Below, piece after piece: positions 21,679 to 56,321 of a stretch of DNA of 64,000 nt (positions are counted from its first letter, which is position 1; every line of letters begins with the position of its first letter). The position numbers and the translations under genes are program-made. The stretch is from Naegleria gruberi (lineage: Eukaryota), in the NCBI GenBank assembly GCA_000004985.1, contig GG738875.1, one strand, 5' to 3'. The notes under the pieces were generated by a model. That model saw only the letters and a program-made list of their open reading frames with translations, made no database searches and was not told where the DNA came from.

Positions 21679-22177
21679 TATTTTTTTTGTTTGATGTTTC
21701 TTCATACAATGGCATTCCGTAAAAATAGAATCTATTTTTATTTTATATTTCCAAGACAAAGGTGTACACCTTGTTTGATTTACAGAATAATCCTTATTGA
21801 TGTTAATTGTTTCATTTCACTGATGAATTTGAGTTGTTCTAAAGAGTCAAACAAATGTTCAGAAAATTCAACATTAACAATACTATTCATAAATTGACTT
21901 TTCATTCCGCGTCAGACATTTCTCTTCCATATTTCCTCCGAATTCATTAATTGATGATTTTCAAAATCATGTCTGTTTCGTTTACTCATTTTTTAAATTG
22001 GAATACTCAACATTAACCTCTGTGAAAGAAGTTGATATCTCTTTATTACCAATCATATTCAATTGTCTGACATCTTCAACTATGACCATATCACGATGAA
22101 CGCATCTCAAAGTATCAGTATTCCCCATACGTTCACATTGTTTTCTTATTCAAAATTAAGATTTTAACAGAGTGAAT

Positions 22178-23717: not shown

Positions 23718-26700
23718 TTAAGCATTAATCTTGAGTCTTCTACCGGCTTGGGCTGGTTTTTTCTTCTTGTCTTCTACCTTTTTGAAACTTAGGGTTGGTT
23801 GTGCTGAATATTCTTCTAGCTTTACAAAACTCTCTGCTTCTCTAACCTTACGATCTTGTTCTGCTAAATGTTTGATGAGTGATATACATAGACTTTTGGT
23901 ATGACATAAACAAACAGAATCAGGGATAATATCTCCATCTTCTATGGCAACAATTTCATTTTGAGAAGTAATAGGCCACAGACTATCCATAATAATATAG
24001 AAATTCAACCCAATATTTGTTTGTTGGTAGAAAGCAGGAATCAAGAACCTTATAATAAATCTTTTGAGAACTGTTGTAAGGTTATTGATATTGACATTGT
24101 TTTCTTGGCATGATCTAATAATTCTTTGCACAATATTTTCTTCCAACTCTATAGTATACAAGTCACTGAGATAATTAACTTCAAAATCAAAGATAACTTC
24201 TTCTACATATTCAAACAAGTTGACAATCTTGTTGAGAGTAAAATTAGCGAAAAACTGTTCCTTGTCATTCAAGTTGATTTTCCAATCATAGCAAAATGTA
24301 GAGACTGTAACATCAGGATTAAAGTTCACCAAATTCATGACTTCCAATAGTTTTTGTAAGGAACCTTGGATTTTTTTCAATCTTGGCAAGTCGTTGATTA
24401 GTATATTCACTTTGGTTCTTTCAGAGTCGTCCAGAGGTATTGGATTTGGAATTTTCTTTCTGGCGGCCATATCTGCATTGCTACCAAAAGATTCACCAAT
24501 GTACTTGATTTTTCTCAAGTTTTCAAAATCCAATCGCTTTTTTCCTAATAAATACTTTGAGGCCAAAGCAAATTCAATCTTATCAAAAAGGTATCCAACT
24601 GTTGTACCTTTTCCATATTCATAATTTTTGTATGAAAAAGTAATGGTTAAATCTTCCAAGTATTCTGGGTTAATAATTACCAGATCTTTCTTTTGAGCTT
24701 TTTGTACTGGAATAGTAGGTAACCCTATGATACCATTAATAGATTTCAAAAAGGCAAGATTTGCTGATTTCTCAGCATTTTGTTCTGCAATATCTATAAA
24801 ATTATTTTGTACTTCAGCATAGCCTTGCAAGGCAGCACAAATATACAACCCAAATGGCTCTTGCTGATCTTCTATCAAGAAGAATGATAGCATTTCTGTG
24901 TCAATCTTTTTCTTTGATTTAGGTTGTTTACATCCATAATTTACAGCTTTTTCTGCTTTCCATTCTGTAACTACCTTTCCATAGAGTTCTTTCAAGCCAT
25001 TAGTTTCTGCATAATACTTCATTTCTGTTTTTTCAGCAGTTGCTCGTTCAATAGTGTTATCACATTTATCCATCAATAAATTGGAAAAAGTGATAAGGTC
25101 GAAAAGGCTTTCGATGTGATGTAGCTCTTTTTCATTAGTCAAGTAGGCTTTCAGGAAAGGATACAATTGTGCATTCTCTGGATTAGACATGAATAATGCC
25201 TTCATGCCTTGGACAGAAGGAGATGATGTAATTCTAAATTCTGTAAATTTGTTAATTTGGGAATTATTTGGCGTACATGTTTCTTCAATGATTGCTTGGA
25301 GACTACTGTTTTCTTCGGACCTGGTAGAATTCATTTTTATATCTCTGATTGAGAGGTTAATGTCTCCCAGAACTCTGGAGGTATATTCTATCAATCCATT
25401 TTCGAAAATGGCTCTCTTGTCCTCTGTATCTAACCTTTCATTATTTCCAAATAAATAATCCAAATTTGAAATAATACATTGCTGCAATAGGAAGCACAAA
25501 TTTTCACCTTGTTGATCTAAAATTTGGGCCAATATATTCCAATCCTTAGCAGCTTTTTCATTAAAGTAATCAATAGGGTTATTAAGTTGATTCTGGATGA
25601 AGAAACCTCTAATTTCATCTATGCTAACTAAATTGATATCTAAGCCATTGAGGATAATTGAATTAATAAAGAATTGCCAAACTCTGAACATTGCTGGAGG
25701 GAATTGTCTTACGGTATGATAATCATCATTAATTGCAGACATTGTACATCCTTTTTCGTTGGATGAATCGGTTCCGTCTCTTTTAGCTTCATCAATTCTA
25801 CTTCCTTGAATAAGTTTGTGACCTTCTCCTCCAAGTGTTGCTCCACATGTTGGGCATCTAGCAGTACCATTAGGTTGTCCACAATTTCCAATCAAATATA
25901 CATAACCACAATTACATCTGTATCTACTGTGACCTCCATCTTTGGTGTTGATAGCCTTCAAAATACCACCTAAAATATCGTGTTCTGCTGTAACTACGTA
26001 TGTGGAACGGACTGTATTTGGATTTTTGATGAAGATGGAAATAGGGTTTTCTGGTATGCATACAGCAAGACACATAACACTAATTCTAATAACATAACTG
26101 CAATCCCTTACAGTTGCTGATCTAAGTAAGCGTGTCACAAGGTTTTTTACAGATTTTGAAAAGCTTTGGAAGCTGCTTGCAAAGAATTCCACACAGAGAC
26201 GTAATGTTGAATCGGTAATTTGTGAAAAGTGAATATTGTTAGTAATCAATCCCATCAATGTGTACAACAACTTTGGATTGGACTTTGCCTCTTGAATAAG
26301 TTCCAACATATCTCTTGTATTATTCAAGTAGTACATTTCATCAAAAGCTTTTTCTGCTTCTTTGTATCTAGGTAGTGACCTAAATATGTTATAACCAAGT
26401 GTGTCGAACGATTTGTTTGTTAAATCAACATCTAATGATCCAGAGATATCAGACTCCACAAATTCTTTAAAATCTAACCAATTATCGAAAGATTGTTTCA
26501 CACATTTGAGAAGATAATTTTTTGCGTCTTCGTCTTGAGATAAATAATTGGAAATTATTGATCCAGAAATAGTGGTTTGAAGGTCTTCTTGACTTGAAAT
26601 ATTTTTCAAATGGTGTCTAATTGATGCAACGTAGTAGGCTCTTTCAATATCTGGAACTGACTCACTATTAGGAGAATTGATTTTGTTACCTAATATTCTT

Positions 26701-29700
26701 AATTCTTCTTCATTGGTCAATTCTTGGTCTGAAACCAGTTCTTCAAGTACATCTATAAACACATAGTAAAGAGGGCAATATGGGTTATTCACAAGAAGAT
26801 TGTTTAGAACCCTCAGGTTCTCAAAATTTCCCTCCTCTAACTCTTCTATATGATCAACACAAATCTTATAGACAATTTGCGTCAAATATTTAACATCTTG
26901 GATTTCAACAAGTTCTCTACATACTACCTCCAATAACTCTTCTGTAAGCTCTAGTCTTGAAATAAATACCATCTTGGATTGGAATAGGTTTTGGGACTTT
27001 GATAAAATTTGCAATATGTTTTCTATTAATTTTGGATCTTCAAGATTGCAATCATAGCAGAGAATCTCTGTACATATTTGTTGGATTTCATATGGGTATT
27101 CCAGTAAATAGTGAGAGAAATCTTTCAAAATTTTTAACAAAGTAGCTGAAACATTCTCTTCCAACAATATTGGCAAAACTGTTGCTATTTTGTCTTTCCA
27201 TTCATTGTTAGGGGTTCTAGTTCCGTCTTGAAGCAGAGATAAGGTGATTATATCAAGTAAATCATCCAAGCATTCAATATCCTCAGGTATCTCAATAGAA
27301 TTTCCACAACAATACTTGATTAATTCTACAACAGCAAGTAATGTTTTTTGGTTATTCCAAACCATTAGTATTAATCTTTCTTTTGGAGAGAGTACTAAGT
27401 TGATCTCGAATAAACCAAGTATGATATTTTCGAATATTTGAGCGAATTCTGAGTTCAGCCCCAGTTCTTGAGCAGTGATTGTCAAAAAATCTCTTTTAAG
27501 AAGTTCTTCTGAGTAATCTTGCAGGCCAAAAACGCATTCAGATGACTCTATCAAAGAAAGAAGTAGAGGCTCTAACTGTTGTTCTTGATTATCACCTTTT
27601 TCAATACTGGAATTTTGTTTTAACATTTCCAACTTGTCTTTGAGTTCCTTATAGATTTCACATTGCCACTTACTATATGGAAGTCTCAAGCCCTTTATCA
27701 ACATAATTTTAGAATTATTAGCTCCATTATTGTGGTATTTAGCAGTGATATTCTTCCATAAAGCTCTCAACTTCGGATCTGCAATGAAAAAGGTCTCAAG
27801 AGCTGAATGTTGTTCAATGAATTTCAAAATATTGAGCAATTTTCGTTGAACAAGGTCTTGCATTTCGTTTTTGATAGCATCTATCAGACAACCAGATTCT
27901 GCAAGCTTTTTCTTGTCAAGGGCAACATGTTTCCTCCAATCAAACTGAACCTTTTGCAATTCTTCATTAAGAATTTCTCCAATAAATTGTAAAAATTCGG
28001 CATCTTCAATTATCTTGGAAGATAATGTACTTATGTATTCAATATTTACGGCAAAGTAGTCTATCTTCATTAATGTTGCCTGAATGATATCTTTCAAGAT
28101 ACTTTCAACATTGTAAAATTCACTCGAGAACATATCATGGATATCTAATAAGTTGGTCTGGTCAAAATTAGGGGACAACTCGTCAATAGTCACTTGTTTC
28201 CACCCATTCATGAAATTTAATTTCCAATCTTCATTTGCATTCTCATAAATATCTCTGGAGATGTGTAAAATGAGGAATACCTTCTTGTCAGTCCTGTCAG
28301 AGTTTTGAATATGATGATCTACAATAAATTTTACCATCGGTACAAATTTACCATCCAAATGAGATTCAAAGTGTATGGTCAACAGCCCATTTTCTTCATC
28401 ATTAAAGAAATCTTCGACTTTTTTAGCAAATTCCCTCTCTGTATTAAACTCTCTTACCCTAATGGAGGATAACCAGGTAAAGTTTAATTCTGTCAAAATA
28501 TGTGAAAAGGTCATAATCATGTGAGCAAAACCATCACAATTGTTGTAGTAGTCTAATAGATTATTATGTTTGTCTAATTGGTATCTATTCAACCAGTTGT
28601 CACATTCTTCCTTAGATACGCTGGAATATGCCAATCTGACTATACCATCAAAGGTTGAAGTTGCGATCAGTGCTTCTTTGCAAATTTCTACACAGTGTTC
28701 TACTGAGGTAGTTGAATTAGTATTTGCAAGAACCAGTGATGATAGTGTATCTGAAGAATAGGATGGAAACATGTCGTTAACAGTAAAAACGTTACTATCT
28801 AAATTAGTAATATTTTCTACCCATTCATTTAAACGCATCACACATTCATTCACTTTAGATTCACTAATATTCTCAAAGTTAAGAATTTGTTTTTCGAATC
28901 GGTTCAAAAAAGGAGGATCACAGGTTGCCAGACGCTTTTGGTCAACTAAAACTATGCATCTAAAATTCTCGTTAACGTGGCACATAGGGTTACTATGTGG
29001 GCCAATAGCAATTCTACAATTTCTTCTTTTAGCGACATAAGTATAGTTTTGATTCAGCATATCGTATAAGCTGCCATAGACACTATCTAAATCTTTCAAA
29101 ATCAATGTGTACCCTTCTTCCATACAATAAATAATCTTATTCAAAACCACATAGCTGTATTCTTCTGTCTTGTCCAAATTGAACTGACTTCCATAAATAA
29201 TTTCAGGACTTCTATTAAGGAACTCTTTGTAATAGTACGTAATGATATCTAATGCAGAATCACTATTAGTAATTAACATTAGATGTCTGGCATTCTTATC
29301 TTCAATATTTTCTTTGATTAGTTCCAATATTGGCAAGTCTGATGGTACAGATTCAGTAATTGATGCTTTTTCAAATAATATTTTCTTGAAATTCATAGCC
29401 GAAGCTGAAAGACCTCCAAAATTTCTATCTATAGCTCTACAAAGACTAACAGCAAAATTTTCTTCTTCTTCAATGATAACACTTTTGACAAGTGAGTAGT
29501 AATCTCTCAAACCATGGAAATTGTTATATTTTTTGTTTGAAATAAATTCGTAGTAGGACTTAGAAAGATAATCTAATAGAAGTTCTATTGTATCTGTCTT
29601 TTCAATATGATTATTTTCAAATAAAATTGTTTTTGCAATTTCCTTTAGCTCATTTTCATCAGCTTCAGGTCTAGAAACATGGACTGCTCTGTTCATTTTT

Positions 29701-32700
29701 GCTGCGTCCAACCTCCAGTTTGAGATACCAACCACGGCAACATCCCTTTTCTTTGGTTCTAACAATGCGTGTAGAGCTTTTAGAGGGTTGTGTGCTGAAA
29801 TTTCAGCTAAACCAATTTCATCCAAAATTACTACTGGTATAACTTTTTCTTCTTTTTCATTAATTTTCAAATATCCTCTTGCCTTATCAAATACCTTGAG
29901 AATACCCTCTGATGTAGAAGACTCTGAACCTTGGAATGCAATGAAGATGAGTTGTGGGAGAGTTTTGAAGTATTTATCTATTGAATCTTCTCCTCTTAAA
30001 TTACTAGTCAAAAGTTGAATAGCTAAACTTTTGCTACAACCTGGCTTACCAACAACAAAAACAGGAAGCTTGTTCAAAATGCACACCAATATTACGAAAA
30101 TATTTTCTTTCAAAGACCTATTCCAGGCAATATTTGGTGGAATTTCCATTCTTCTTAGATAACTTGTCTGCTCTTCATCAACTATCCTTACAAAGTCTTC
30201 TTTTGAAATTCTTGGTAAATGTTTACAAACAGTAGTTAGATAATTTTCTCTATATTCTAACTTTGCTAATCTAGAGTAATAACAAACAGAAAGTGCTAAT
30301 ACAACGCTAGAAATATCATATTTGTCATCACGTTGGTTTTCTTGTATCCACATGATTTGGTTTGCTTTTTTCAATGGTTCTGATCTTTTTTTAAGGGTTT
30401 CTAAGAAATACTGACACAAAACAATAAATCTATTGACGTCTCGCAAACTAACGCTAGAAGCATCTTCCAAATCTCTTACAAAAGCTTGGGATTCACAAAT
30501 TATTGTGCAGAGAATATGTTTTGGAAATTGTATGGTTAATCTTCCAAGCATTGTTTGGATATAACTCATTTCGTCAGTTTGAGATAAAAAGCCATAATCC
30601 CAAATATAATCAATTAAACAATCAGGTAAAGGATTGACTCTATAAGCAAGGTCTGATGCTTTATCTTTTTCTAGAGCAGATGTATAAATATGCTTCCTTG
30701 TTCTATATGGATTGCATGCAGCAATAACTGAGATATTAATTGGTAGGCTGATTCCACGTATTGACTTTAAAGTTACAATTTCTGAGACCAAACCTAAATA
30801 GTCACATGTGTTAATTTCATCCAAGAATACCAAATGCTTTGTATTAGGATTGTTATAAGCTTGTTCTATAACTGCTTCCATAAAGCTGATAATTATGTCA
30901 GGTGTTGTTCCAGCATGGAAATTAAGTAAATTAAAGGAGGCACCTGTTTTTTTAGCTAAAAACTCTACCAGACTTGTTTTTCCACAACCTGTTTCACCTG
31001 ATATCACAACTGGTATACAGGCTTCTACTCTTAATAGTATTAACATCATTTTCAACAAATTGTCTGCAGTCATGGCATATTGACCATCATACTCTGTAAT
31101 AGATCCGGCCATCTTTCCCAACTCAAATAACAAGGCTTCTTGATTGAGAGAGGAGTAATCTGGAAGAGAAACTTTTTGGCTTTGCAAAGTGTCAAAAATA
31201 TCGGAATGGGTTTGTTGAAGGAAAGACAAGTCTCTATATAGAGCTGTGATAGTGGAATCGTACTTATGGAAAGCAACAATAAGGTGATTACTTTCCTCCC
31301 ATCTAACCATTCCAGATTCTTTAAACAACACCACATCTGATTTTGATCCCATCACATGATGTTGTTGTTGTTTTCTATTTCCATGCACAGATCTGGTTGA
31401 AAATTCAGAATACACATCCATTAGTACTTTAACTAGTTTGCTTCTAATTTTTTGGGATTCTGTAACATGTGTAATTTGTTGGGTTTTTAAGAAAACTGAC
31501 TGAGAAAATTTGATAAATTGTTCAGCAAGAACATTAATGAATACGTGCATTAAAGAGTAATTGATCTCCTTCTTATTTTTAAAAAAGTACTTTTGAATCA
31601 AGAGTCTACATTCTTCATCAGATACAACGGTTGCATTTGCATTTGGGCCACTGAATATAATATCTTCCGTATCTATTGTGTCATTATCCAACGCTTTCAG
31701 GTAATTAAATGTGACTTGACTTCTAGATAATAATGATTTGTTGAAAACTAAATTTTCTAAACGAAATTCAATATCTTTCTTATTAATCAAATATGTTTCT
31801 CGAATGGTCAAGAAGTTCCAAAATCTGGATTGGCTCTCTAATTCAATAAATATATCAAGGTTATTAACAGGAATTTTGAACATAACACGGTCATCTATCA
31901 CCATACCAAAAGTTATAATCTCGAACAAAAGATTATTCAGCAAGCAAGCATTTGATTGGGATAAATTTCTTATATCAATGTGTAAACAGTCTATATGTGA
32001 GAGATTCAACCTCTTTAATCTATTGCACAATTCTGCTCTGTTTACTGAATCCATAATAGGTAAATGAACCAGTTTTTTACGTCTACGGAGTGCCTCAAGC
32101 CTAATATTTTCTGTTTTTCCGACACCAGATACATCTGATGAGTAAAGATAGGCTTTTGAAAATGGTTGAATAGCTTTAGTAGTGGTTGTGTTTGGAATAT
32201 TTTGTAGGAATCGTTTGAATTGGTTTACAACATAGCTAGTTTGGTTTCCACTGGTATCTATCAAGCACAGTGAGCTCTTTTTTTCTAGATTAAGTTCTTT
32301 GAGTCTATTAATTTTATCAACTAGTTGAGCTTGAAGTGAGAACGAAAGCTTCTCTATTTGTGCTATGCAATATAGATCACCAGATAGATTGTTAAAAAAC
32401 GATCTTGAAACAATAGCATTAAGTGGCTGCCAAGTAGTACCATATTCACAAAATAGTACTGTGGAGGGTTTAGGAAGGCTATTAGTGAAAATTTTCAGGA
32501 TTGTGCTAATGAGCTCTTTGTTTTCCACAGATAGGACTACAAAAGTATTTCTAAAGTAGGATGATACATTTGCATCAGATTTAACCTTATTGTGAAAGAT
32601 TTTATCCAAAATCTTACCCAATCTTTCTAATCTATGTTCCATGTCTAATAGCTGTTCTTGTTGTTGGAATTGTATCAATTTAATTTCATTCTTGGATATT

Positions 32701-35700
32701 GGATGGATAAAATTTAATAGAGGATAAACATCATCTACTGTGCCATTTCCAGAAAAATACCTTTCCAACACCCAGAATCGCTCTGGAGCGAAGAAATTCA
32801 AAAAGAAATGTTTTCCTAAATAATTATCCAAAATGGTTTGCCAGTTTTGTGTTTCCGTCTCAATTTCTTGGATATTATCTGGCAATGCATCGAAATCTAT
32901 TTTTTCAGAACAATAATCCTTATTGTTTCCCAAAGCTTTCAAATTGTTAATTTTTGTTAAGTAATCAAAAGCAAGATCACAATATTCTATAAACATTTCC
33001 ATATCATGGAAATTTCTTTCAAGAGATTGGTCTTTTCTTGAATTTATAATCAACAATGCTCCGCTTCGTAAATCTTGTATATCAGCTATACTGACTTGTT
33101 TTACCTGGTCGTCATTACCATTGTAAAGCAGAGATAAAATATAGGCAGTAACATTTTCCAATGAAACTCTAAAATAGCCAGATTGTGTGGCATTGTAAAT
33201 TGTTTCCTTTGTGAGCTCTCCTCTGTTAGCAATAGAGTCTAGCAGATTTTTCAAACCGTTAATAGAATGATTTGAGCTTTCGACCTTCACTACTAATTTT
33301 AAATCTACAACAATATTTGATAAACGGTTACAAAAATCTTGGATGCTTCTATATTCCTGGCTAATGATTGGCCTGATTAATTTGCTGGCCTCAATCAAAT
33401 CTGCCACTGTTTCTTGCCTTATAAAGTTTTCTCCCAAATCTTCAACTGCATTTACCAAAGCCATAATACTTTGTTGATCAGTCTCCTTAATGAATTGAAG
33501 GAGTGGAGAAGAAGTAGACAAGGCATCTAGAAAAAGACAGTCCATTCTAGCAAGAGAATAGGTGCTAATTATTTGCTCTACACGCTTACAAGTTTCAATC
33601 CAATTCGATTCTAAGCTCATATTCTTGAATTCATTTAATTCATCAATTTCAGTATCAATATCACCGATGTCAAGAGCATTTGAGCCAGTAATCTCTATAA
33701 TTTTTTGAACCAGCTCCATTACCTGTTTTGTAAAGAGAAGGGTTTTCAATTTGGTAGTAAGTTCTATTACTTTTTCATCACTTGCGTCAACAAGATTACC
33801 CAAAAATTTCACTTCATTTGTAATATTTTCTTTTTTGATAGCTCCTAAAATTTCAATAACTTTGGAGGAAGGTAGTATTCTCCCCTAAAAACAGTTCATA
33901 AGAAAAATGTGTAAGCTCTACACTTATAGCAGAACCAAGATCGATTATATCACTAACCAAGCTAGTATGTTTGCTTGTTCTCGCTTTAAGGAGTTTGGAA
34001 AAGGATTTTGACTGCTTGCAGCAAATGATAGTCTTCAAATTTTTGTTTTCAGCTCCAGATACAGATTGATTTTGGAATTCTGAAAAGCTCATCTTCATCA
34101 TGCCATCATATAAATCCTTATATTTCTTTTTCATCTTTTCGAAATCAGAACAATGGGTACAGTATGCATCAAGAATTTTTCTCATATCATTGATGTGTTC
34201 TTTGTATGTATTGATTTGTTGTATCATATCAGCAAGACTTTTAACACAATCCTCTCCGAGATATAACTTCAATATTTGATGATCATTGTTGTTCAAATTT
34301 TCAATTTTTTCCACTGTTACAGCTGCAAGGTTCTTCTTTAAAAAGTTAATCTTTGTGGTAATGTTCAAAAGTTTTGGCTCTGGTTTTAGAGTAAAGTACT
34401 TAATCAATAAAAACCAAGCATTGTCTTTAAACACTCTTTCCGTGTCCATCAATTCTAATATCTTCAAAAGGATGGCACGTAAGTGAGAAGTGTTGAACTC
34501 CTTTCCGCAACAAACACCATCAATGACATAAAGGTACAAGGGTACTTTTTTGCTTTGCAATTTTTTGATAGTAATTTTAATCACTTCAACCACAGATTCA
34601 TCAAGAAATTTAATTGGCAACGCACACGGTTCGTTGATGATCGTCTTTAAACAAAAATCCAACAGTGACTCATCAGTTCCCTTTTTCTCCAATCGAGGGA
34701 GAATAACCTCATGCACAGTATCTAGAAAATTCTTTCCAAGATTTACGGTACACAAGTGAAGATAATAAGTTAAATCTTCTACACGTACACCTCCGAAAGT
34801 AACTCTAGCGGCAAGCCATTTCTTCAGCTGATCTTTCAATTCATTGTTTTGGAATTTTTTTATAAATTTGCAATGGTGATAAAAAACTTTACAGTCTTTT
34901 CATTGTCGGTCAATTGCATGGTGCTAAGAAGTACTTTTAGTTTGTCTTCCTTCTTGATTTCAGATTGGTCAATGAGTTCTTGAATTCTGATCAATTCTGT
35001 TTCATCTTCCAAATCAACCTTTTCAGACAAAATCAATGCAACCATTTGTGTGTCAACAGATAAACTCAACTTGGGATAGTTTTCTCTAATTGAGAACAAC
35101 TTATCCATGTTGGATTCTGTACCAATTGCTTTCTTGAACTTGTCTTTAAATTCATATGAGTTTGAATATTCTGGATTCAGTTCTAAAATGAAATCAAGAT
35201 ACGTCATTCTAACTGGTAACGAATTCAAGAGGAAACGTGCCACTGCACCAACGTAAGGACTATTCAAAATGGCTTGCTTCTTTTTCATAAGGTTTTCCAT
35301 TATCTCACTCAAAGCTCCTTCGTTTGTTATTAAGTAATTAGTATGATTGTTCTTTACAAACTCATAACCTGTAATTTCGGTGTAATCTGAAGACAAAAGT
35401 CTTAAGGCAAAATCAGGAGTGAGACTGATGGCAATTCTGGTGAGAATAACACCTAAACATTTGGATATTGTTTTGTATTGCTTCATTTCTGAATTAAAGG
35501 GAACAGCTAAAAGAGAGTTGAAAATCAATTTCATATCATTAAATTGCAAATTGAATAGAGCATCTGACAATCCAAGTAGAGTACATATGATGAACCGAGT
35601 GTTAACATCTTCTGGGGTTAGGTTCTTCATAAAGGTCACAGCATAATAGAGATCAAGTTTTTTGTTTGATTGGACGAATGATGTTAATAAACTTTCTAAC

Positions 35701-36941
35701 TTTTCATAAATGTTTCTACCTGTTTACAGATATAACACGGCAATATTCTACAAGTCCAACAGTATGGTTTTGGTCGAACGCAAAACTATATCTACTTTCA
35801 CCAAGCATGACCATACAAGGTCTAATGTCATTGCCAGTGAAAAATCTATTTACTACATTCTTGGAAACGTGCATTTGTAAAACGACAGAATGGACATATG
35901 GATCAAAGTTACCTCTCATTACATAAAATTGTTGCCCAATCGGTTCCATCTCTCCCAATTTTCTTTTTCTATCATCAAAAACCTCTACCTTGCTGTATTG
36001 ATTGTTCTCTTGCCACAAATAGATGGTTCGTTTCAAGAATGCCTCATTGCTGACAATAGAACTGGAAGAAGTTGCTACCTGGTTGTCTTTTGTAATTGGA
36101 ATCTGAATCAGTCTTTTGGAGCGAGTACCCTTTCTGAAAAGTTTCGATCTTCTTCTCTTGTTGCTGATTTTCCTTACTCTCTGATACCACTGAAACAGTC
36201 TGTTGTTCGATTGTTTCTGGAGGATCTGAAATAGGAGGATATTGAACCTTCTTTGGTTCACTGATCGTACTGTTTTCGACTGCTGGTAACTCATTACCAA
36301 TAGTCTGATCAGTATCAATGTCCATATTATCATTCGATTGGTTACCACTTGTTTGATCGACTGGAGGTATGTGTGTTTGATCACCAGATGAAGTGCTAGT
36401 TCTAGGTGTTTGGGATTCGGTTGATGGTTTTGGAGGGCCTTCAGAATTCCCAACCCTATTCTCCTCTTGCACAGTTGTGGAACTGTTGGGAGGATTAGCT
36501 GTTAACATTTTTTTTGAGATGATGAGACGAAACGTGATGAAGTGTCAAAGTTTTATTTACCCAAAGGTTTGGAAACTGTTTGCCTCTCTGATCTTTGATT
36601 GGTACATGAAGAAGTTGCGTTGTGGACGCAGGTTGCCAATCCTCTTGTGTTCGAATTACAACAAGTGCATGGTCCTAAACAGACGAAACAAAACTTAAGT
36701 GAACAATTACTGCATAACATGTGACGACATCCTCTACCACTATGAGTATTTGGAGTAAAGAAGTCTGGACACAAACGCATTGAAGGCACTCCTGTAGCAA
36801 GAAATGGAGCTGATCCGTTCATTGAAATATTCTATTCGAATCACGTTTAGTTACAGATGGATCAATTACGGATAATGAACCAATTAAAATACTTACAACT
36901 GTTTTGCATTTAGAGGCTGCGTCTTGTTTGTGTTCATTCAT
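23718..36941 (-). CDS. giant RNF213/mysterin-like protein: N-terminal Cys-rich module, S/T-rich linker, dynein-like AAA ATPase units, RZ-type zinc finger (putative E3)
   Basis: The main exon 33812..23718 (3364 aa) has no ATG. Its frame stays open upstream to a 'tttttag' acceptor. The exons 34839..33853 and 35639..34860 lie in the same frame, separated by one TAA that sits inside a candidate 65-nt GTAAAG..CAG intron. Further upstream exons are found on the same strand. The first exon 36941..36897 ('MNEHKQDAASKCKTV') ends in GTAAGT. The next exon is Cys-rich, with 'CPDFF..GCRHMLCSNCSLKFCFVCLGPCTCC'. A phase-1 GTAAAT..AACAG intron then joins it to an S/T/Q-rich exon. AAA motifs include 'VISGETGCGKTSLVEFLAKK', 'VVGKPGCSKSLAIQLL' and 'DVSGVGKT'. 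The RZ finger is 'RYRCNCGYVYLIGNCGQPNGTARCPTCGATLGG'. The exact exon boundaries at 35650..36100 are unresolved. Confidence 0.65.
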
Positions 36942-37145
36942 TTTTTTGTAATGAAAACTTCACGTTCAAGTCATCAATCAAATATAAAAAATGGAATGCT
37001 CATCATGTCACTTTGTGCTGCCATCATCAATGTTTGTTGGTTTTCCATTGAGTGATGACTGTGATCACATCACCACTTCTTGTTTATCTGTAGTTAGTTT
37101 ATTAGTACAAACATATATTTAACAAAATTTAAGTGTTTATTAGAA
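36942..37145. promoter_or_regulatory. putative bidirectional promoter between giant RNF213-like gene and UBL-TerD gene
   Basis: A 204-bp AT-rich spacer lies between the two divergent start codons at 36941 (minus) and 37146 (plus). It is inferred from the gene arrangement only. Confidence 0.3.
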
Positions 37146-38048
37146 ATGGATAAATGTCCAGAAGATGGATTTCTCCTTCCGGAACAAACCAAGGATTTTA
37201 TCTCAAGATCTTTGAGAGGGCAACAAGTAGAGGTGAATGATCAAGAAATTAATGTGATTGAAACTCCACAAGTTGATGAACCAATCACTGTTCAAATTTT
37301 GACACTTGGTGGCTCAGTTTGTCAAGTTAAAACTAACAAGAAGCACTCAATCATCACATTGAAGGAAGAAATTGAGAAGTACATGGATATTCCAGTTGGT
37401 AAACAGTCGCTCTTCTTTAGGAATACAGAATTGGAGAATTACAATAATGGTATGTCAAGAAGAGTGGGAGATTTTGGAATTCAAGATAATGACAAGATCT
37501 ATCTCTCCATTTTAATGAAGGAAATTGATGTTGGAGACAATATCAATGCAGTGAAAGTTAGATTACAATGGAATTGGGTTAATTCTCGTGATTTCTTGGA
37601 TGGAATCGTCTACGTTCTCGATGGAAATAACAACATTACAGCAAGACTCGATTATGATAACAATGTTTCTCCTCTTTGTGGAGAATCAATCTTCCACAAA
37701 GGAGACGATATTGACAATGACAGAAAATTAGGATGTCAAATCATTGGCATGAACCTTGAAAACATTCCAATGTCTGTTCAAACTATTGTCTTTACTTTGA
37801 GCTCATACAGAGCATCTTCTCTCAGCTCCTTCAAGAATCCTCGTGTTCACATCGAAGAGGAAACAAGAGGTCAACCATTGGCTGGTTGTGATACTGATGC
37901 GATTAAATCTCAGGCAATTATTGTTTGTGCTTTTAGAAGATCACAACAAGGATGGAGAATCATTCAAATCAATAGAGAATCTTCAGGCAATGCACAAAAT
38001 GATTCTGCTCTCATAACATCCATTATTGATGTTGTCAGAAATTTGTAG
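37146..38048 (+). CDS. ubiquitin-like (beta-grasp) domain fused to TerD-family domain
   Basis: The N-terminal 'ITVQILTLGGSVCQVKTNKKHSIITLKEEIEKYMDIPVGKQSLFFRNTELEN' has a ubiquitin-fold pattern. The C-terminal half aligns with TerD: 'VKVRLQWNW', 'FLDGIVYVLDG', 'HKGDDIDNDRKLGCQIIGMNLENIPMSVQTIVFTLSSY', and 'QAIIVCAFRRSQQGWRIIQI'. Confidence 0.7.
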   Translation: MDKCPEDGFLLPEQTKDFISRSLRGQQVEVNDQEINVIETPQVDEPITVQILTLGGSVCQVKTNKKHSIITLKEEIEKYMDIPVGKQSLFFRNTELENYNNGMSRRVGDFGIQDNDKIYLSILMKEIDVGDNINAVKVRLQWNWVNSRDFLDGIVYVLDGNNNITARLDYDNNVSPLCGESIFHKGDDIDNDRKLGCQIIGMNLENIPMSVQTIVFTLSSYRASSLSSFKNPRVHIEEETRGQPLAGCDTDAIKSQAIIVCAFRRSQQGWRIIQINRESSGNAQNDSALITSIIDVVRNL

Positions 38049-38059
38049 AATAAACTTTA

Positions 38060-38320
38060 TTAGAAGAAACTAAAAGATGAACCATCTTTGACACCAGAAA
38101 TAACAATATGATCACCATCAAATATTCTCAACTTTTTCAAGCTATCATTAAAACGATCATCACTATTATTAATAGAATCTTGACTTTCCTGTACGTAGAG
38201 ACTCATCTCTGAGCTATTGAGTTTAAATTCGATTCTTGCTGTGGCAGCAACTTCAGAGAGAGTTGTAGTTTCGGCTACTGTGATTTCCTTCTTGGTATTG
38301 TATTCAATCCAAATCTTCAT
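38060..38320 (-). CDS. small stand-alone beta-grasp/ubiquitin-like candidate protein (86 aa)
   Basis: 'MKIWIEYNTKKEITVAETTTLSEVAATARIEFKL...LRIFDGDHIVISGV' shows the beta-beta-alpha-...-beta hydrophobic pattern of a ubiquitin fold. There is no terminal Gly-Gly; it ends '...GVKDGSSFSFF'. It sits tail-to-tail 12 bp from the TerD gene and 94 bp divergent from the E1 gene. Confidence 0.3.
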   Translation of the reverse strand: MKIWIEYNTKKEITVAETTTLSEVAATARIEFKLNSSEMSLYVQESQDSINNSDDRFNDSLKKLRIFDGDHIVISGVKDGSSFSFF

Positions 38321-38413
38321 ATTTTTTATTTATAATTTGCTTGGCAAGCTACGGGTGAATCGTGATTCTATTTGGACCTTTAGGATAATTCACGTTTCGT
38401 ATTTGCGTTTACA

Positions 38414-41400
38414 ATGGGAATCGTGAAACAAAAACATAAAAAAATGTCTGATACGCTCCTTCTCAGTCGTCAATTTAGTGTGTTTGGTGCCAATGAGACT
38501 CATCATATTGAAAACTGCAAGCTTTTGATCATTGGTTGTAATGGATTAGGCAATGAAGTTGGTAAGTTTTGTTTCGTCATTCATTCTCACAACAGTTTTA
38601 TAGCCAAGAACTTGATCATGGCAGGTGTGAAGAATGTTACTCTATTCGATCCGAAGGGTGTAGAATGGAGAGATTTATCAGGTCTTGTAAGTGAGAACAA
38701 TTCCACTTTTTCGAATACTTTTGTTAACATGATTATTCGAAACGTACTACAGACATTTGTTGGTTCGATTACAATGAAAACCAGAGCCAAGATCGTAATG
38801 GATTATTTGAAAGATCTTGCTCCCAAAACAAACATCAAGGAATCAACTGCAAAGACTTTTTCTGCATTATGTCAAGAAAGTTATCTCAGAGAATTCACTT
38901 TTGTTGTTTGTTGTGGTTATCCTCTTTCTTTGAATTCTAAACTTAACGAAACTTGCAGAAAGGTCGGTATACCTTTCCTTTGCTGTGATTCAAAGGGAGT
39001 TTTGAGTTATGTTTTTGAAGATTTGGGTGAAAATTATACCTACATTGTTGATGATGGTAAAACAAATTATGACACCTCAATTCCTATTGTTTCCATTCAA
39101 AAAGTTGAGAATTCTGATAACAAATATCAAATTATGTGTACTTCTACCTTGAGTGATGGGGTTCTTGTTTCATTCCATCAAATTGTTAACAAATCAATGG
39201 GTGAGGTCAGTGTTGAGGCAAAGAATGACAAGTCAATTGAAACTTCTGAGCATCTTAAAGAAGAATCTATTGATAAGGCTGCAACAACGTCTTCTGCCCC
39301 TGAAGTGAGTAATGAAGGGGAAGTTGAAACTGAAAAGCAAGAAAACATTCCACTTGAACAAACAAAACAAAACGAATCCAATATGAATCCTCAAAATTCC
39401 CAAGTCGAAGAAGAGGTGAACATGATGGAAATTCAAGAAAAATCACACCACCTCCTCGTGAAGAACTATTGGTCCAAAAATCATTCAATCTTCCTACTGG
39501 AAAGTTTAAAATTTCCAACTCTTCCAAGAACTGCTTTACAATTGAATGTGAAGATGAAATTAATCCTGAATGTTATGAAGGAGGATGTTTCTTGAAATTG
39601 GTACGAGAACAAAAAAGTGTTTCCTTTGTAAGTAGTTTTGAGTTTTTTCATGTTCAATTTGACAATGTTAATTAGAAACCATTGGAAGAATTGATTAATC
39701 ATTCCAAGGACAGTTTCTTTTACAATAGAAGAAAGCCAATTGACAATTTACAACTAATGTGCTTGAAAGTATATGATATCTTTGTTCAAGAAAATGGACG
39801 TTCTCCACTTCCATGGAACACTAAAGATTGTACTCAATGCAAGGATTTATCAATTCAGCTTATCAATTCCTATATTAATAATGATATCGTTGAAGACCTC
39901 AAAGGTTTAGAAAGCAAAGCAGAGCTATTCTTTAATACAAGCCAGCAAATATTGCACCATTGAATGCCATGGTTGGTGGTCTAGTTGCCCAAGAAACCTT
40001 GAAATCCATCTCCAGAAAGTACACTCCTCTCAAAGATGATCGAGCCCTTAATCAATTCCTTTTCATTGACAACTTTAATTTGGGTGATACTTTGGAAGAA
40101 TCAATAATGAAGGAAAATGTTCAAAATCTTAGAGGAACAATCTATGAAGGTGTTTCCCCACTTCTTACTGAGAGGGCAATTTCACATTTGAACGGAATGA
40201 ATGTTCTTGTGGCTGGTGCAGGTGCTGTTGGTTGTGAGGTTTTGAAAAATCTCTCTTCCATGATGGTGAGCACAAACAAGAACTCTTCGATTCATGTAGT
40301 TGACTATGATCGTGTTGCTCCTTCAAATCTCCACAGACAAATTTTATTTAGAGATTCAGATGCCAAATTAATGGAATTTAAGGCTATTGCTGCGAGTAGA
40401 AAGCTCAAGCAAATGAATCCAGATTTGAATTTGATTGCCAAAACTGAGAAATTATGCTATGAGAGTGAAGAGACTGAATTTCCTGAACAATTCTGGCAGA
40501 ATGTCAATGTCATCTTTTCATGTGTTGATAGCAAGGATGCAAGAGGTTATTTAAGCGATAAAGCTCAAATCCTTCACATTCCCATGATTGAAGGTGGTAC
40601 TGAGGGATCTAAAGGTTCCTCTCTCATCATTCACGAACAAGTTGCAGGTTATGGATCCTACATGAATCTGAATGCTTCAAGAGAGGAGGAAGTTGTAATC
40701 AATAATGCATGTATTCCATCCTTTGCAATTTATAAACCAGAGCAAGCCATAAGAAAGGCAGTAGAACTTTTCACATGGTTCTTTAAGGAAAATGTTGAAG
40801 TTGTGAATTTGCTTGGCAAACATGATCTTTCTGATGAGAAGGTTAAAGAAAATTATGAAATGTATAGAGATGGTCTTGAGAAACCAGAAAAAATGTCCAG
40901 ACAACTCTTTAATATATTGTTTGAGGAACAAATTAATGAAGCTGCTGCCAAATATAATGAAATCAATGAGAAGGGTAAGTTGTAAAATGTTGGAATTGTT
41001 CATAACCAAACTATTCGAAAGATGATGTCAAATTATTGTTGAGAAAACCACCCATTCAAGAAAAATTCAATGCTCATGACGAATCCCATTTAAGATTCCT
41101 CAAAGCATCCAATGCTATCATTAAGGAATTTAAAATCAAAAAGAAAAAGCTCACACCTATCCATTTTGAGAAAGATGAGGATTCTCATTTGGAATGGATT
41201 GTTTCCTGCTCTATTCTATTGTCCAAATGTTATGGAATATTCCATAATGGAGAGAGAGAATTTGTTAGAAGAGTTGCTGGACAAATTATCCCTGCCATCA
41301 TTACAACCACTTCAATGGTCTCAGGTTTCATGTGTCTCAATTTGTTCAAGTATGTCCAGACTGGATATAAGAATCTCAGTAATTTGGATTTTAATACTGC

Positions 41401-42740
41401 AAGTAATGGATATAGTTTCCATCATTGTGTTCAAAAACTGAAGAGTCCAGTCCCTGGAAAGTTAATTTCCAACTTTGAAACAGTTTCAGATTTTGTAATT
41501 TATCCTTCCACAACAATTACTGAATGGGTTGACTTTGTAAAGAGAAAGTATGAAATTGGAGTTGAAAAGATAACAATCTATCCAAAGTTTGATGTTTATG
41601 ACTTTGGATCTCTTCCATGGGGTGAAACGTAAGTTATTTGCAGGCAATCTGATTTTATATTCGAAACCATTTCTAGATTTTATGAAACTTTCAGCAAGAA
41701 TAGAACAATGCAAAAGAAAGAATGGATTACCCTCATCAGTGAGACATACATTGATGGTTTTCCATACAGTTTCAAAACTCAAGTCAGAGTTTCTGTTCCA
41801 CTCAAACTGCAAAATGTTGAAGGATCGTGTTATTTGAATTCTGCATTGCAAGTTTTGCATTCATGTCATGAATTTGTTGAGCAATTGAGAAATAGCTCAC
41901 CAACAACACCTGTTGCAAAGGTTTTGAAATCTGTTTTTGAGGATAACTTTTCAAGAGTAAGTTTTTTCTTAATTCATGTTAATTTGAACCCAAAAAGTCC
42001 AAAATTAATGAACTCAGACGATTGACAAACAGATCAGACAAATATTCAGGAGATACACCAGTAAGTTTTTTTTGCCTAATCATCATCAAAATATTCTAAA
42101 TAATAATAATATTGACAACTAGAAATATGTGAGATCAATTTTTACTGAAATTTTAGGAGAGGAAGAAATTGATAGTGAACTCATCGATTGTAAACTGGTT
42201 GACTATTTCAGTTGGAAATCTCCTCAAATTTGTGATGTTTGTGAAGAGTGTCAACAGTCTATTAGAGGACCTATCAGACCCATTTCCTCTCAAGTTCTTC
42301 TACTTCAAGGAAATCCAAAAGTTTCCACTGAACAATTACTGAACAATAGTTTCTGTTTCGATTCCAATAACAAGTGTCAATGTGGAGGTAAAATTTTCAG
42401 ACACAAAATATTCCAATCCTGCCCAGAATATCTTCTCTGTGAAATTGAAAATCCACAACAAAAGTGGATTCCAAACAATTCTATCGAAACCAAAGTTTAT
42501 ATTGAAACAGTTGACTGTACTTATGAACTAGTTGGTGGAGCCATTTATAGTGGAAATAGAAGTGGTGGACATTGGAGAGCCTACTCAAAACAAGCTTATG
42601 GTTGGTTTAGTTGTGATGATTCAATGGTTTCCTATATTGGAACAACTATTCCAAGTTCATACTTGTTAGGAAGTGCCTTTGTGGCATATAAGAAAGTTGG
42701 CAATGATCCAACAAATGAAGATGAAATGGTTGATGAATAA
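38414..42740 (+). CDS. canonical two-domain E1 (UBA1/UBA6-like ubiquitin-activating enzyme) fused in-frame, via splicing, to a C-terminal USP-type deubiquitinase domain
   Basis: E1 part: the first Rossmann half reads 'LLIIGCNGLGNEV|AKNLIMAGVKNVTLFD', with a 41-nt GTAAGT intron at 38562..38602. The junction into the second half is 'PLNAMVGGLVAQETLKSISRKYTPL'. The active adenylation half is 'VLVAGAGAVGCEVLKNL...VVDYDRVAPSNLHRQILFRDSD'. A catalytic-Cys candidate is 'NNACIPSF'. The E1 continues with 'FEKDEDSHLEWIVSCSIL...GQIIPAIITTTSMVSGFMCLNLFKYVQ' and a UFD-like end. Fusion point: the E1 ORF's TAA at 41630 is part of the donor 'ac|GTAAGT'. Splicing to the TTTCAG acceptor at about 41685 keeps the frame into 'KNRTMQKKEW...'. 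USP part: the Cys box is 'LQNVEGSCYLNSALQVL', the zinc ribbon is 'ICDVCEEC...CQCGGK', and the His box is 'YELVGGAIYSGNRSGGHWRAYSKQAYGWFSCDDSMVSY'. Unresolved frame shifts are noted at about 39440-39470 and about 39935-39960. Confidence 0.7.
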
Positions 42741-42899
42741 ACTAATGTACAATTTATTGACAAACTAATCGAATTGCCTTAGTTTCGTATGATGTTGTCG
42801 GAGAACACTCTCGAACTATATTCATTAATATTCGTACAAAAACTGGAAATTGCTTTTGAAACCAGTTTATTCAACAACAATCAAACTAAACATAAAAAA

Positions 42900-43991
42900 A
42901 TGAGTTTATGTATTGGTGGTTGTGGTTTCTATGGAACACCAGAACGTAGAGGATATTGTTCTTCATGTGAAAAAAAGCATCCGAATAATAATTCAAGTAA
43001 TTTAACAAATGACAGCTTCCAAAAATGGAAAGATGAGCATGATAAACAAAAAGAAGAGGAAGAAATTCTAAAGAAACGTTCTGCTGAATATTTAATTGAA
43101 AATCAACAAAAGAAAGTTCGTAATGAGCCTTGTGTGAAATTTAACATGTCGGAAGTCAGTATGTTGACAGATGGTGGATTATTTGTTGAGATTGTCAAGT
43201 TTTTGGAAGTTTCTGATATGTATCACATTATGCTGGCTTCAAAATCAATGAGTTCATTGGTAAATAATGAGTATATTTGGAAAATTTTATTCGAAAACAA
43301 ATATGGAAATGAGGAGAAACCAATAGTTGGAACTTGTTATGAAAATCTCAGAATGAGAGGAAGGTTTACAAGATCTGAAGTGTCATGGAACTATTTCACT
43401 GAAAATCCATGGGTATTAGAAAAGTTGCTCACCATTAAAATTACCAAAATTGGAAAAATTGGAAATCTCAATTCACCATTGGATCAATTAATTCCTCCCT
43501 CAATTAATAGACAAAACATCACTCAAATAATCAAACATTTATGGCAACCACTCAAAAATGACCTTCCACATCTTATTGAACTACTCACACAAAGAATCAA
43601 AAATCTCCTAGTTGTCAGAGATGAATTATCAAGATGGCATTTGATTTATGTTTTTAAATTACAATCAGAGGATGAAGAGGAAGATGAAGAGGATGAAGAG
43701 GAAAATGTTAGGTTTCTCTCAGGAGGTCTGCCTTACCATCCAGGAAACTCTGGAAATGAATTACAATTTGATTGGTGGGGGAAATGTCCAACCTCTCTGA
43801 AAAGTTTCATGTCAATTCATAATGGATTTGGTGATAATCCAAGTTTGGATTATAGTAAGGGAACTTTTGATAGTTCAGTATTTGTGAATTATCCAAAGTT
43901 TGATGGATTGGAAGTTTTGACGTTTCATCATGGTGCTGATTTGGATCAATGTAAGTATGATAATATTGTAAATTATTGTAATTTTCAATGA
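42900..43991 (+). CDS. A20-type zinc finger + F-box protein
   Basis: The N-terminus 'MSLCIGGCGFYGTPERRGYCSSCEKK' is the A20 zinc-finger pattern C-x2-C-x11-C-x2-C. 'LTDGGLFVEIVKFLEVSDMYHIMLASKSMSSLVNNEYIWKILF' is F-box-like. The protein also has an acidic E/D tract. Confidence 0.55.
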   Translation: MSLCIGGCGFYGTPERRGYCSSCEKKHPNNNSSNLTNDSFQKWKDEHDKQKEEEEILKKRSAEYLIENQQKKVRNEPCVKFNMSEVSMLTDGGLFVEIVKFLEVSDMYHIMLASKSMSSLVNNEYIWKILFENKYGNEEKPIVGTCYENLRMRGRFTRSEVSWNYFTENPWVLEKLLTIKITKIGKIGNLNSPLDQLIPPSINRQNITQIIKHLWQPLKNDLPHLIELLTQRIKNLLVVRDELSRWHLIYVFKLQSEDEEEDEEDEEENVRFLSGGLPYHPGNSGNELQFDWWGKCPTSLKSFMSIHNGFGDNPSLDYSKGTFDSSVFVNYPKFDGLEVLTFHHGADLDQCKYDNIVNYCNFQ

Positions 43992-44191
43992 AATTGTAAA
44001 GGTTTTGTAAGAGATTCAGGAAGTTTAGAACTAGAACCAAAAACTGGTCAGTTCTGGAGAAGATATAAAGGTCGTCCATCACCTGAGATTTCATTTTACA
44101 AATTTATGGATTCGTATTATTCACAAGCTTTTCAAGAATAACCGAAACATATCTATTCACTATCTGGCCATGACATTTTCGCAATAAAAAA

Positions 44192-45193
44192 ATGTCGTTA
44201 ATCATTGATGTTGGTTGCTATCAAACAAAGTTTGGACATTCAGATGAAAATTCACCTAAAATTATTTCAACAACAATTAGTGGAGAAAATCAAGAAGTGG
44301 AATATTTTGTAGATAGTAATGGACAATTAGTATCGGAGAAAGTTGGAGAATTTCTTGAAAATGTTTTTGGAATGGATGAGTATCCGGTTGTGATGAGTGA
44401 AAATCCATCATGGGAAAAGAAATTAGCTGATAAAAACATGTTTGAAATTTTATTCGAAAAGTTTCGAATTCCTTCTGTGAATATTGTTAATGAAGCAGAA
44501 TTAATCATGCTTGAGAATGGAAGAACTAATGGATGTGTTTTAAATTCTGGTCATGGAAATAGTTATGCTGTTGTGGTTCGAGATGGAAAATCTGTAAGTG
44601 AAACATTGGTGACAAGTGAATTGGGTGGACGAAACCTATCCGAATATTTGAAAAAGCTCATTTTGGAGAATAGAGGAATGGATATGAATCAATCTATTGC
44701 ATTCACCAAGTCTCTTACAGAATTGAAGGAAACTTTATGTTTAGTTTCGAATGATTATTCGTATGATATACAGCAAGCAGCAGAATTTGAAGAAAGTTTC
44801 TCCCTTCCAGATGGAAACTCAATAACTGTTGGATTGGAACGTTTCAAATCTTGTGAGGAATTATTTTCTCCTTCTCTCACCGAAACCATTGGTTTTCCAG
44901 AGCTAATTGTCAACTCGATTGACAAGTTGGAATTAGAATGGAGAAGAGACACATTTTCTAATATTGTTTTGGCAGGAGGAACGACAATGATTCCAAGATT
45001 TATGGATAGATTAAAGAGTGGTATTAAAGATTTGATTCCAACTGCCACTCCTGTCAACGTGAGAGGTTATTCCAATAGAATTCATTCAGCTTGGAGAGGA
45101 GGCAAGATATTGGCAAATTTGATGAATGGAAAATCGACATTTGGCATGAATATCAATAGGGAAGAATATGCTGAAAGTAAAAGATTGAATTAG
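44192..45193 (+). CDS. divergent actin-related protein (Arp)
   Basis: Actin-fold signatures are present: 'IIDVGCYQTKFGHSDENSPK' (phosphate-1 loop), 'VLNSGHGNSYAVVV', and 'IVLAGGTTMIPRFMDRLKSGIKDL'. Confidence 0.6.
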   Translation: MSLIIDVGCYQTKFGHSDENSPKIISTTISGENQEVEYFVDSNGQLVSEKVGEFLENVFGMDEYPVVMSENPSWEKKLADKNMFEILFEKFRIPSVNIVNEAELIMLENGRTNGCVLNSGHGNSYAVVVRDGKSVSETLVTSELGGRNLSEYLKKLILENRGMDMNQSIAFTKSLTELKETLCLVSNDYSYDIQQAAEFEESFSLPDGNSITVGLERFKSCEELFSPSLTETIGFPELIVNSIDKLELEWRRDTFSNIVLAGGTTMIPRFMDRLKSGIKDLIPTATPVNVRGYSNRIHSAWRGGKILANLMNGKSTFGMNINREEYAESKRLN

Positions 45194-56263: not shown

Positions 56264-56321
56264 TTTTTTTAAATTAAATTTTATTAAAAACAATTTGGGC
56301 GGGAAACAATTTCAAAAAAAA

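Follow-up and report, generated by a model that had tools for sequence, protein, structure and literature searches.

Ubiquitin-system genes in a row in Naegleria gruberi and the recurrent pairing of an RNF213-like giant with a RING-like/UBL/TerD gene

RNF213, a ubiquitin ligase with antimicrobial activity, is also a major disease gene in humans (moyamoya), and little is known of its regulation and partners. Here we describe an RNF213-like gene in the amoeba Naegleria gruberi, encoded in a 64,000-nucleotide stretch of contig GG738875.1 (assembly GCA_000004985.1; the whole stretch is referred to below as the window). Over 20 kb of this window, from position 23718 to 43991, ubiquitin-system genes stand in a row: the RNF213-like giant, a gene combining a RING-like finger with a ubiquitin-like (UBL) and a TerD domain (the TerD gene), a small open reading frame (ORF) of 86 amino acids (aa), a ubiquitin-activating enzyme (E1) with a predicted USP-type protease at its C-terminus, and an A20/F-box-like gene. 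These assignments were mostly borne out by Pfam matches above the family cut-offs. The giant and the TerD gene are also neighbours in the sea anemone Nematostella vectensis and on a metagenome contig. Based on sequence comparison, we think it likely that the region is a genuine compact ubiquitin neighbourhood with a conserved two-gene core, the giant and the TerD gene, that acts as a functional unit.

Like vertebrate RNF213 (structures 6TAX, 7OIK and 8S24), the N. gruberi giant has a dynein-like AAA core of about 1000 residues with both P-loops, and an RZ finger with its nucleophile Cys and His. In contrast to vertebrate RNF213, it has no RING, no CBM20 was detected, and the region of the ubiquitin ligase (E3) module is about 300 residues shorter. 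The giant also differs in having a possible N-terminal IBR/Rcat-like finger, in being paired with a separate RING-like/UBL/TerD gene, and in belonging to a RING-less clade with cnidarians, bivalves and Glomeromycota. The neighbouring gene shares a TerD domain above the Pfam cut-off with bacterial TerD and Dictyostelium CABP1-type proteins. Unlike in those proteins, the domain follows a RING-like finger and an internal UBL; proteins of this type, about 340-370 aa in length, form a family confined to eukaryotes. A non-conjugatable UBL and a zinc-finger ligase-like domain in one chain recall Parkin-type proteins, but this is a resemblance only, as the order here is finger-UBL-TerD and there is no RBR module.

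The E1 part shares with UBA1, UBA6 and UBA7 two ThiF domains, a 4HB, an SCCH remnant, the start of a UFD and the ATP-binding motif. It differs from them in an acidic insert of about 80 residues, a short SCCH, a Cys shifted by one and the predicted C-terminal USP, and the Pfam E1_FCCH and E1_UFD models do not detect it. In outline, the cluster is also like the ISG15 system (UBA7, UBE2L6, HERC5, USP18, ISG15), with a dedicated E1, a USP-type protease, a small ubiquitin-like candidate and an immune-type ligase. An initial annotation of this DNA, made from the letters alone, had drawn that parallel, and it survives as a functional analogy at best. No di-ubiquitin-like (tandem-UBL) modifier, UBE2L6-type ubiquitin-conjugating enzyme (E2) or HERC5-type HECT ligase is present in the window. 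UBA7 is no nearer a match for the cluster E1 than UBA1 is, and the likeness is one of analogy, not homology.

The RNF213-like giant and the RING-like/UBL/TerD gene

The main exon of the giant comprises 3364 codons (23718-33812, minus strand) and is 100% identical to the N. gruberi protein NAEGRDRAFT_80150 (P0003 in our searches), which confirms that the DNA is eukaryotic, as initially annotated. Comparison of the ORF with solved RNF213 by phmmer gave an E-value of 2e-123. Judged by its sequence, the giant is a genuine homologue of RNF213, and its full length is put at about 4,250 aa. The public model NAEGRDRAFT_80150 (3300 aa) appears incomplete and represents only the large exon. ORF residues 894-1846 (28275-31133, minus strand) form the dynein-like AAA core, which aligns with residues 2417-3453 of human RNF213 and matches Pfam AAA, AAA_5 and AAA_7. 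A motif scan of the core identified the Walker A sequence GETGCGKT and a second P-loop, GKPGCSKS. The C-terminal region, RZ finger included, can also be aligned to solved RNF213.

The RZ finger, RCNCGYVYLIGNCGQPNGTARCPTCGATLGGEGH (ORF residues 2625-2672; 25797-25940, minus strand), matches Pfam ZnF_RZ-type at 58.5 bits against a cut-off of 27 (E 5e-16). The earlier description of an RNF213-like giant with an RZ finger and AAA domains is correct. Compared with vertebrate and fungal RZ fingers, the nucleophile Cys (NCG), the CPTC pair and the terminal His (GGEGH) are all kept, while the first His ligand is substituted (CNCGY). The roles of the nucleophile Cys and the general-base His have been assigned in PMC11549300. 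The finger is intact in N. gruberi, Glomeromycota and vertebrates. It is degenerate, with loss of the nucleophile Cys and GGxxH, in Nematostella (P0005), in metagenome locus L052 (5820-11747) and in the ENA proteins P0004 and P0008. RNF213-like giants with a decayed RZ finger may have no ligase site of their own.

No Pfam RING match was detected in the giant ORF, and a motif scan found only one CxxC outside the RZ finger in its 3364 residues. The closest relatives, at 31-35% identity, come from Nematostella, Xenia, bivalves, Glomeromycota and rotifers, all of them without Pfam RING matches. Pfam CBM_20 was matched by none of the ORFs upstream of the main exon, where exon structure is ambiguous, and is present in a Diversispora relative. 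We also observed that Rhizophagus irregularis (CP110709.1; L005, 1-24247) carries two RNF213-like paralogues of about 4170 aa each, both with an RZ finger, arranged head-to-head 650 bp apart.

The probable upstream exons occupy 33853-36941 on the minus strand (33853-34839, 34860-35639, about 35716-36050, 36044-36508, 36553-36822, and a first exon from the ATG at 36941). These ORFs have coding-like codon scores, a GTAAGT donor is present at 36896, and short GT..AG joins are available between them, with several junctions ambiguous. RNF213-like homologues have between 335 and 1225 residues N-terminal to the start of their alignment with the giant main ORF. No sequence similarity was found between the upstream ORFs and these N-termini, and their membership in the giant gene is therefore argued from geometry and codon usage. 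The Cys-rich exon at 36553-36822, near the 5' end of the gene, contains an IBR/Rcat-like motif, GCRHMLCSNCSLKFCFVC, that matches Pfam IBR_2 below the cut-off (E 0.001). The motif resembles the catalytic RING2/Rcat (IBR) finger of RBR ligases.

The TerD gene is divergent from the giant. Its first exon, MECSSCHFVLPSSMFVGFPLSDDCDHITTSCLS (99 nt; 36991-37089, plus strand), encodes a RING-like finger with a C3HC4 pattern. Splicing of the 44-nt intron that follows (37090-37133) restores the reading frame, and the resulting N-terminus aligns with the N-termini of the family. The second exon (37134-38048, plus strand) completes the finger and encodes an internal UBL that lacks Gly-Gly (Pfam ubiquitin, E 3e-6), followed by the TerD domain (E 3e-11). 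For the ORF within it (37146-38048, plus strand), TerD scores 43.7 bits against a cut-off of 25.3 and ubiquitin scores 27.2 bits, so the UBL-TerD gene called earlier is upheld. The full protein is 337 aa. The public model, NAEGRDRAFT_49954, is a 300-aa version without the RING-like first exon, and exact look-ups showed this version to be the only one of the gene models made here that is already public. According to our gene models, the ATGs of the giant (36941, minus strand) and the TerD gene (36991, plus strand) are separated by a divergent spacer of 49 bp (36942-36990). A spacer of 204 bp had been given previously, and this is wrong because it contains the 99-nt first exon of the TerD gene.

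We used the TerD ORF to search 1.84e9 representative sequences with HMMER, which returned 369 relatives at E<=1e-3. Many of these have lengths of 340-370 aa and are matched over the UBL and the TerD domain together; both domains are present in all 12 of the family members aligned (12/12). Named members come from a sponge, soft and stony corals, a bivalve, a starfish, amphioxus and four genera of Glomeromycota. The family N-terminus is a conserved finger of the form CxxC..CxH..CxxC..CPxC. The family UBL ends in ...LLYSIS, and because it is internal and has no C-terminal Gly-Gly we consider it to be of the docking type and no modifier. Metagenome proteins of 960-1740 aa (P0074, P0079, P0130 and others), made up of 8-13 tandem UBL repeats without Gly-Gly ends, also match the UBL region of the TerD protein. 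These poly-UBL proteins are generic UBL arrays. The metagenome scan for the family used a closer alignment of six sequences, as the alignment of all 12 was too diverse. Literature searches found no paper describing the RING-like/UBL/TerD architecture.

Recurrence of the giant/TerD pair

In Nematostella vectensis (OW051999.1), the next gene upstream of the RNF213-like gene (P0005) is divergent from it and encodes a ubiquitin+TerD protein of 342 aa; the two genes are about 4 kb apart. On metagenome contig OMLO01000466.1 (locus L052), an RNF213-like gene has UBL and TerD exons at a distance of 4 kb from its 3' end. This locus is invertebrate-like, and its TerD is 63% identical to an amphioxus protein. 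Exon 1 of the TerD gene has 33 codons in both N. gruberi and Nematostella (L085, 5829-5927); exon 1 of L052 was not found. Exon 2 begins with the same Cys codon, directly after the AG acceptor and in phase 0, in N. gruberi, Nematostella and L052 (about 600-615). The first intron is thus matched between Discoba and animals, which suggests that it is very old or was passed on by an old eukaryote-to-eukaryote transfer. Furthermore, the RING-less RNF213-like family and the RING-like/UBL/TerD family occur in the same patchy set of lineages.

Since the two genes are again close together in Nematostella and L052, and both families are found in a shared set of lineages, chance adjacency is excluded for the giant/TerD pair. 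It could still be that the neighbourhood as a whole is fortuitous, made up of unrelated members of a large ubiquitin repertoire in a gene-dense genome. All spacers of the window are short, so tight spacing is not a special property of these genes, and other ubiquitin-related genes are scattered nearby, namely those for an Rpt ATPase (20250-21759) and a BRCT/F-box protein (54416-56293). The synteny of the pair is also absent in Glomeromycota. The recurrence of the pair argues against a fortuitous arrangement, but it covers only the giant and the TerD gene and not the other three genes. Taking both sides together, we regard a chance neighbourhood as very improbable.

Several observations weigh against a conserved giant/TerD unit. 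Linkage of the two genes within 10 kb was absent in Rhizophagus irregularis, Diversispora eburnea, Entrophospora and ENA contig L004. In R. clarus, the longest contigs recorded for the two genes differ in size, suggesting that they lie on separate contigs. Of the metagenome TerD loci that exceed 6 kb, about eight in number, a single one had an RNF213-like neighbour. The homology search returned no second Naegleria homologue of the giant. The N. gruberi finger itself keeps seven of eight ligand positions (the last Cys is replaced by Asp) and is not detected by the Pfam RING models, and only 1 of the 12 family members reaches zf-C3HC4.

The patchy distribution of the pair (marine invertebrates, Glomeromycota and Naegleria) raises the question of its origin. 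The pair, or the whole cluster, may have entered Naegleria by eukaryote-to-eukaryote or virus-mediated transfer, as opposed to vertical descent from the last eukaryotic common ancestor. The very uneven distribution, the lack of another Naegleria match for the giant, and the identical intron position and shared head-to-head order with Nematostella all fit a transfer. However, the nearest relatives are only 26-35% identical, so any transfer must be old. The GC content equals that of the flanks, the introns are of the host's style, and two scans of viral contigs found no matches. We consider transfer possible but doubtful. It should also be noted that it concerns the origin of the genes and not their function, and is compatible with the giant and the TerD gene being a functional unit.

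A functional giant/TerD unit thus remains our preferred reading. The initial annotation had gone further and proposed a dedicated, co-regulated module for ubiquitin-like conjugation made up of all five genes, to be checked by synteny in related genomes. That proposal is supported for the giant/TerD pair, which are neighbours in Nematostella and on OMLO01000466.1. For the other three genes the adjacency is seen in N. gruberi only: tblastn found no homologues of E1-USP, the 86-aa ORF or the A20/F-box gene in the related loci examined, including Nematostella, L052 and the fungal loci. A metagenome scan with a single protein gave no match. Full-text searches found no literature linking TerD with RNF213 or RNF213 with Naegleria, or naming this locus tag.

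The E1-USP, 86-aa and A20/F-box-like genes

The E1 part (38414-41628, plus strand; seven exons) is of UBA1 type. Its inactive and active adenylation domains are accompanied by a 4HB, an SCCH of reduced length and an incomplete UFD, and its FCCH region carries an acidic insert. Downstream come the end of the UFD-like region and a USP domain (41677-42740, plus strand; three exons; UCH E 5e-13), which a predicted intron of 48 nt (41629-41676) connects to the E1 part. The spliced model of 38414-42740 has ten exons and 1294 aa, and seven of its nine introns begin with GTAAGT. Single-exon-sized ORFs of this interval already match Pfam ThiF, E1_4HB, SCCH and UCH on their own. In the 1294-aa model, two ThiF domains (211 bits, E 2e-62), the 4HB, UBA_E1_SCCH (23.7 bits, cut-off 21) and UCH (residues 1019-1264; 49.7 bits, cut-off 23.9) were detected.

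The best solved relatives of the E1 part are S. pombe Uba1 (E 5e-67), then UBA6 and UBA7 (to 8e-56). Its ATP motif, GAGAVGCE, aligns with GAGAIGCE. The candidate catalytic Cys, in NNACIPSF, lies one residue after the canonical position of PICTLKNFP. Only the first part of the UFD aligns, up to Uba1 residue 928, and there is no Pfam E1_UFD match. The acidic low-complexity insert in the FCCH region (about 80 residues; 39205-39456, plus strand) has coding-like codon usage, for which reason a 262-nt E1 intron was dropped for one of 47 nt. In the USP domain, the Cys box NVEGSCYLNSALQ and the His box SGGHWRAY..DDS place the catalytic Cys, His and Asp in alignment with those of Ubp6.

Whether the two parts are fused, as initially annotated, hangs on the predicted intron at 41629-41676, whose GTAAGT donor overlaps an in-frame TAA; the E1 and USP domains themselves are above the Pfam cut-offs. 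Left unspliced, the interval would hold a gene for a 975-aa E1 and, separated from it by 75 nt, one for a USP starting at the ATG at 41708. We favour the fusion, because an E1 ending at 41632 would be without about 48 UFD residues, and E1 and USP are accordingly predicted to be one polypeptide. The acidic insert swamped the word-indexed homology search with E1-USP. Such searches returned a few housekeeping UBA1-like proteins in unrelated neighbourhoods, at 27-29% identity, and are uninformative on fusions elsewhere. If true, the fusion would be an unusual 'writer plus eraser' within a single polypeptide.

Between the TerD gene and E1-USP lies the 86-aa ORF (38060-38320, minus strand), a candidate small ubiquitin-like protein that ends ...HIVISGVKDGSSFSFF. 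Its codon-usage score (0.293) is equal to that of real genes. Pfam TUG-UBL1 and UBL_USP40 matched it below the cut-off (E 0.003), and an ad hoc UBL hidden Markov model gave 7.4 bits, compared with at most 6.8 in 2000 shuffles. It aligns in register with UBL domains and has a Gly five residues past the last strand. The hhalign probability against a small UBL alignment was 0.4%, and an AlphaFold prediction from the single sequence, made with no alignment, had a pLDDT of 39 and is not usable as fold evidence. No Gly-Gly is present in the sequence, which ends ...ISGVKDGSSFSFF; one Gly, six residues from the end, would be usable only if the protein were processed. The ORF looks coding, as initially annotated, while its beta-grasp fold is unproven.

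The last gene of the cluster (42789-43991, plus strand) encodes an A20 zinc finger (zf-A20, 28.3 bits; cut-off 21.6). The F-box that had been annotated alongside it is less secure: the F-box-like match reaches 16.2 bits, below the cut-off of 24.3, although the pattern looks right by eye. An extra exon at 44024-44141, after a 69-nt intron, is possible, and splice alternatives exist.

The spacers beyond the giant/TerD pair are 11, 93 and 48 nt, the first two replacing values of 12 and 94 bp given earlier. The 93 bp separate the 86-aa ORF from E1-USP, which are arranged head-to-head. The 9-mer GTTTCGTAT occurs four times in the window, compared with 0.2 expected. One copy is just upstream of the E1-USP ATG (38394-38402, plus strand) and one overlaps the ATG of the A20 gene (42782-42790, plus strand); the remaining two fall within ORFs. 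Another candidate for a shared promoter word, TTCACGTT, was weak (four occurrences against 1.6 expected) and was set aside. Because five consecutive ubiquitin-type genes are improbable and GTTTCGTAT is present at two of the gene starts, a link of E1-USP, the 86-aa ORF and the A20 gene to the giant/TerD pair is plausible.

The most far-reaching form of such a link is a single pathway of all five genes. The USP would trim the SSFSFF tail from an 86-aa modifier, the fused E1 would activate it, an unlinked E2 would carry it and the RZ ligase would attach it, while the TerD protein would do the sensing and the A20/F-box protein would read the mark or serve as an adaptor. This would agree with the retained ATP motif and SCCH-site Cys of the E1, with the intact catalytic Cys, His and Asp of the USP, and with the coding-like 86-aa ORF, its register with UBL domains and the position of its Gly, its head-to-head arrangement with E1-USP, and the GTTTCGTAT copies at the E1-USP and A20 starts. 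Four or five consecutive ubiquitin-system genes are also unlikely by chance (by a rough estimate, about 0.01 genome-wide). However, the proposed modifier has no proven beta-grasp fold and no Gly-Gly, and tblastn found no E2 gene in the 64-kb window, in agreement with the initial annotation for the cluster. In Nematostella, L052 and the fungal loci, the surroundings of the pair contain no E1, USP, A20 or small-ORF homologue, the word-indexed searches gave housekeeping UBA1-like proteins and no other E1-USP fusion, and the fusion is itself a splice prediction. We therefore judge a full five-gene pathway to be unlikely. More modestly, these three genes may feed or edit the giant/TerD pathway in N. 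gruberi, for which adjacency is the sole basis.

The surrounding window is gene-dense, with about 34% GC throughout and short introns (41-66 nt), most of which start with GTAAGT. Flanking genes are clearly eukaryotic (WASP-like WH1+PBD, RhoGAP+LIM, SAM+RGS, HMG-box, pirin and proteasome Rpt ATPase). The proteasome Rpt-type AAA ATPase gene is intron-split, on the minus strand, and two genes upstream of the cluster, with the pirin gene in between. Directly after the cluster are a divergent actin-family gene (44192-45193, plus strand) and a gene for a large ankyrin-repeat protein with a C-terminal MYND finger (45204-48794, minus strand). The BRCT + F-box protein gene, another ubiquitin-system gene of the window, is 10 kb downstream of the cluster on the minus strand. 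The HMG-box protein gene (19355-20002, minus strand) has an identical coding counterpart on a 3-kb contig (L001) of ENA metagenome ERZ929261, and the material sampled there accordingly contained N. gruberi or a very close relative.

Proposed function of the pair

The giant and the RING-like/UBL/TerD protein probably work together, as judged by their conserved pairing. The TerD domain would act as the sensor of a small ligand (Ca2+ or a signal derived from nucleotides), the RING-like finger would bring a charged E2, and the internal UBL would dock the small protein on the giant. The giant would assemble on its target in an ATP-dependent manner and transfer ubiquitin via the RZ-finger Cys, as vertebrate RNF213 does on bacteria. 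In relatives with a decayed RZ finger, such as Nematostella and L052, the ligase site would come from the small RING-like partner, and the decay of the finger in these relatives fits such a division of labour.

An immune or conflict role is likely for the pair by analogy with related proteins. The RZ finger and the ATPase are needed for RNF213 coats on bacteria (PMC11549300), poly(I:C) induces an RNF213 homologue in Nematostella immune cells (PMC13319465), and binding of nucleotide derivatives has been proposed for TerD (PMC7159879). These three lines, namely the role of vertebrate RNF213, the induction in Nematostella and the proposed sensing by TerD, are the reasons for this suggestion. In its boldest form, it would make the cluster a self-contained, orthogonal immune-type pathway of ubiquitin-like conjugation, with a private E1 whose fused USP does both processing and deconjugation, a new 86-aa modifier, an RZ ligase and a ligand-sensing TerD partner. 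The RNF213/TerD core would then predate animals as a defence module and would have been kept by cnidarians, bivalves, amphioxus and arbuscular mycorrhizal fungi. We hold this combined proposal to be distinctly unlikely.

What is new here is the RING-like first exon of the TerD gene, missed until now, and a giant/TerD pair that, by sequence, is conserved from amoeba to sea anemone. Two public N. gruberi gene models, NAEGRDRAFT_49954 and NAEGRDRAFT_80150, are corrected as a result of this work. It may be that the RING inside the vertebrate protein and the separate RING-like partner of the RING-less giants meet one need in two different ways. If the partner is conserved, the RING-like/UBL/TerD protein would be a concrete candidate for a regulator or co-ligase of RNF213, and if the pair is a functional unit, Naegleria and Nematostella would offer tractable non-vertebrate models in which to study it.

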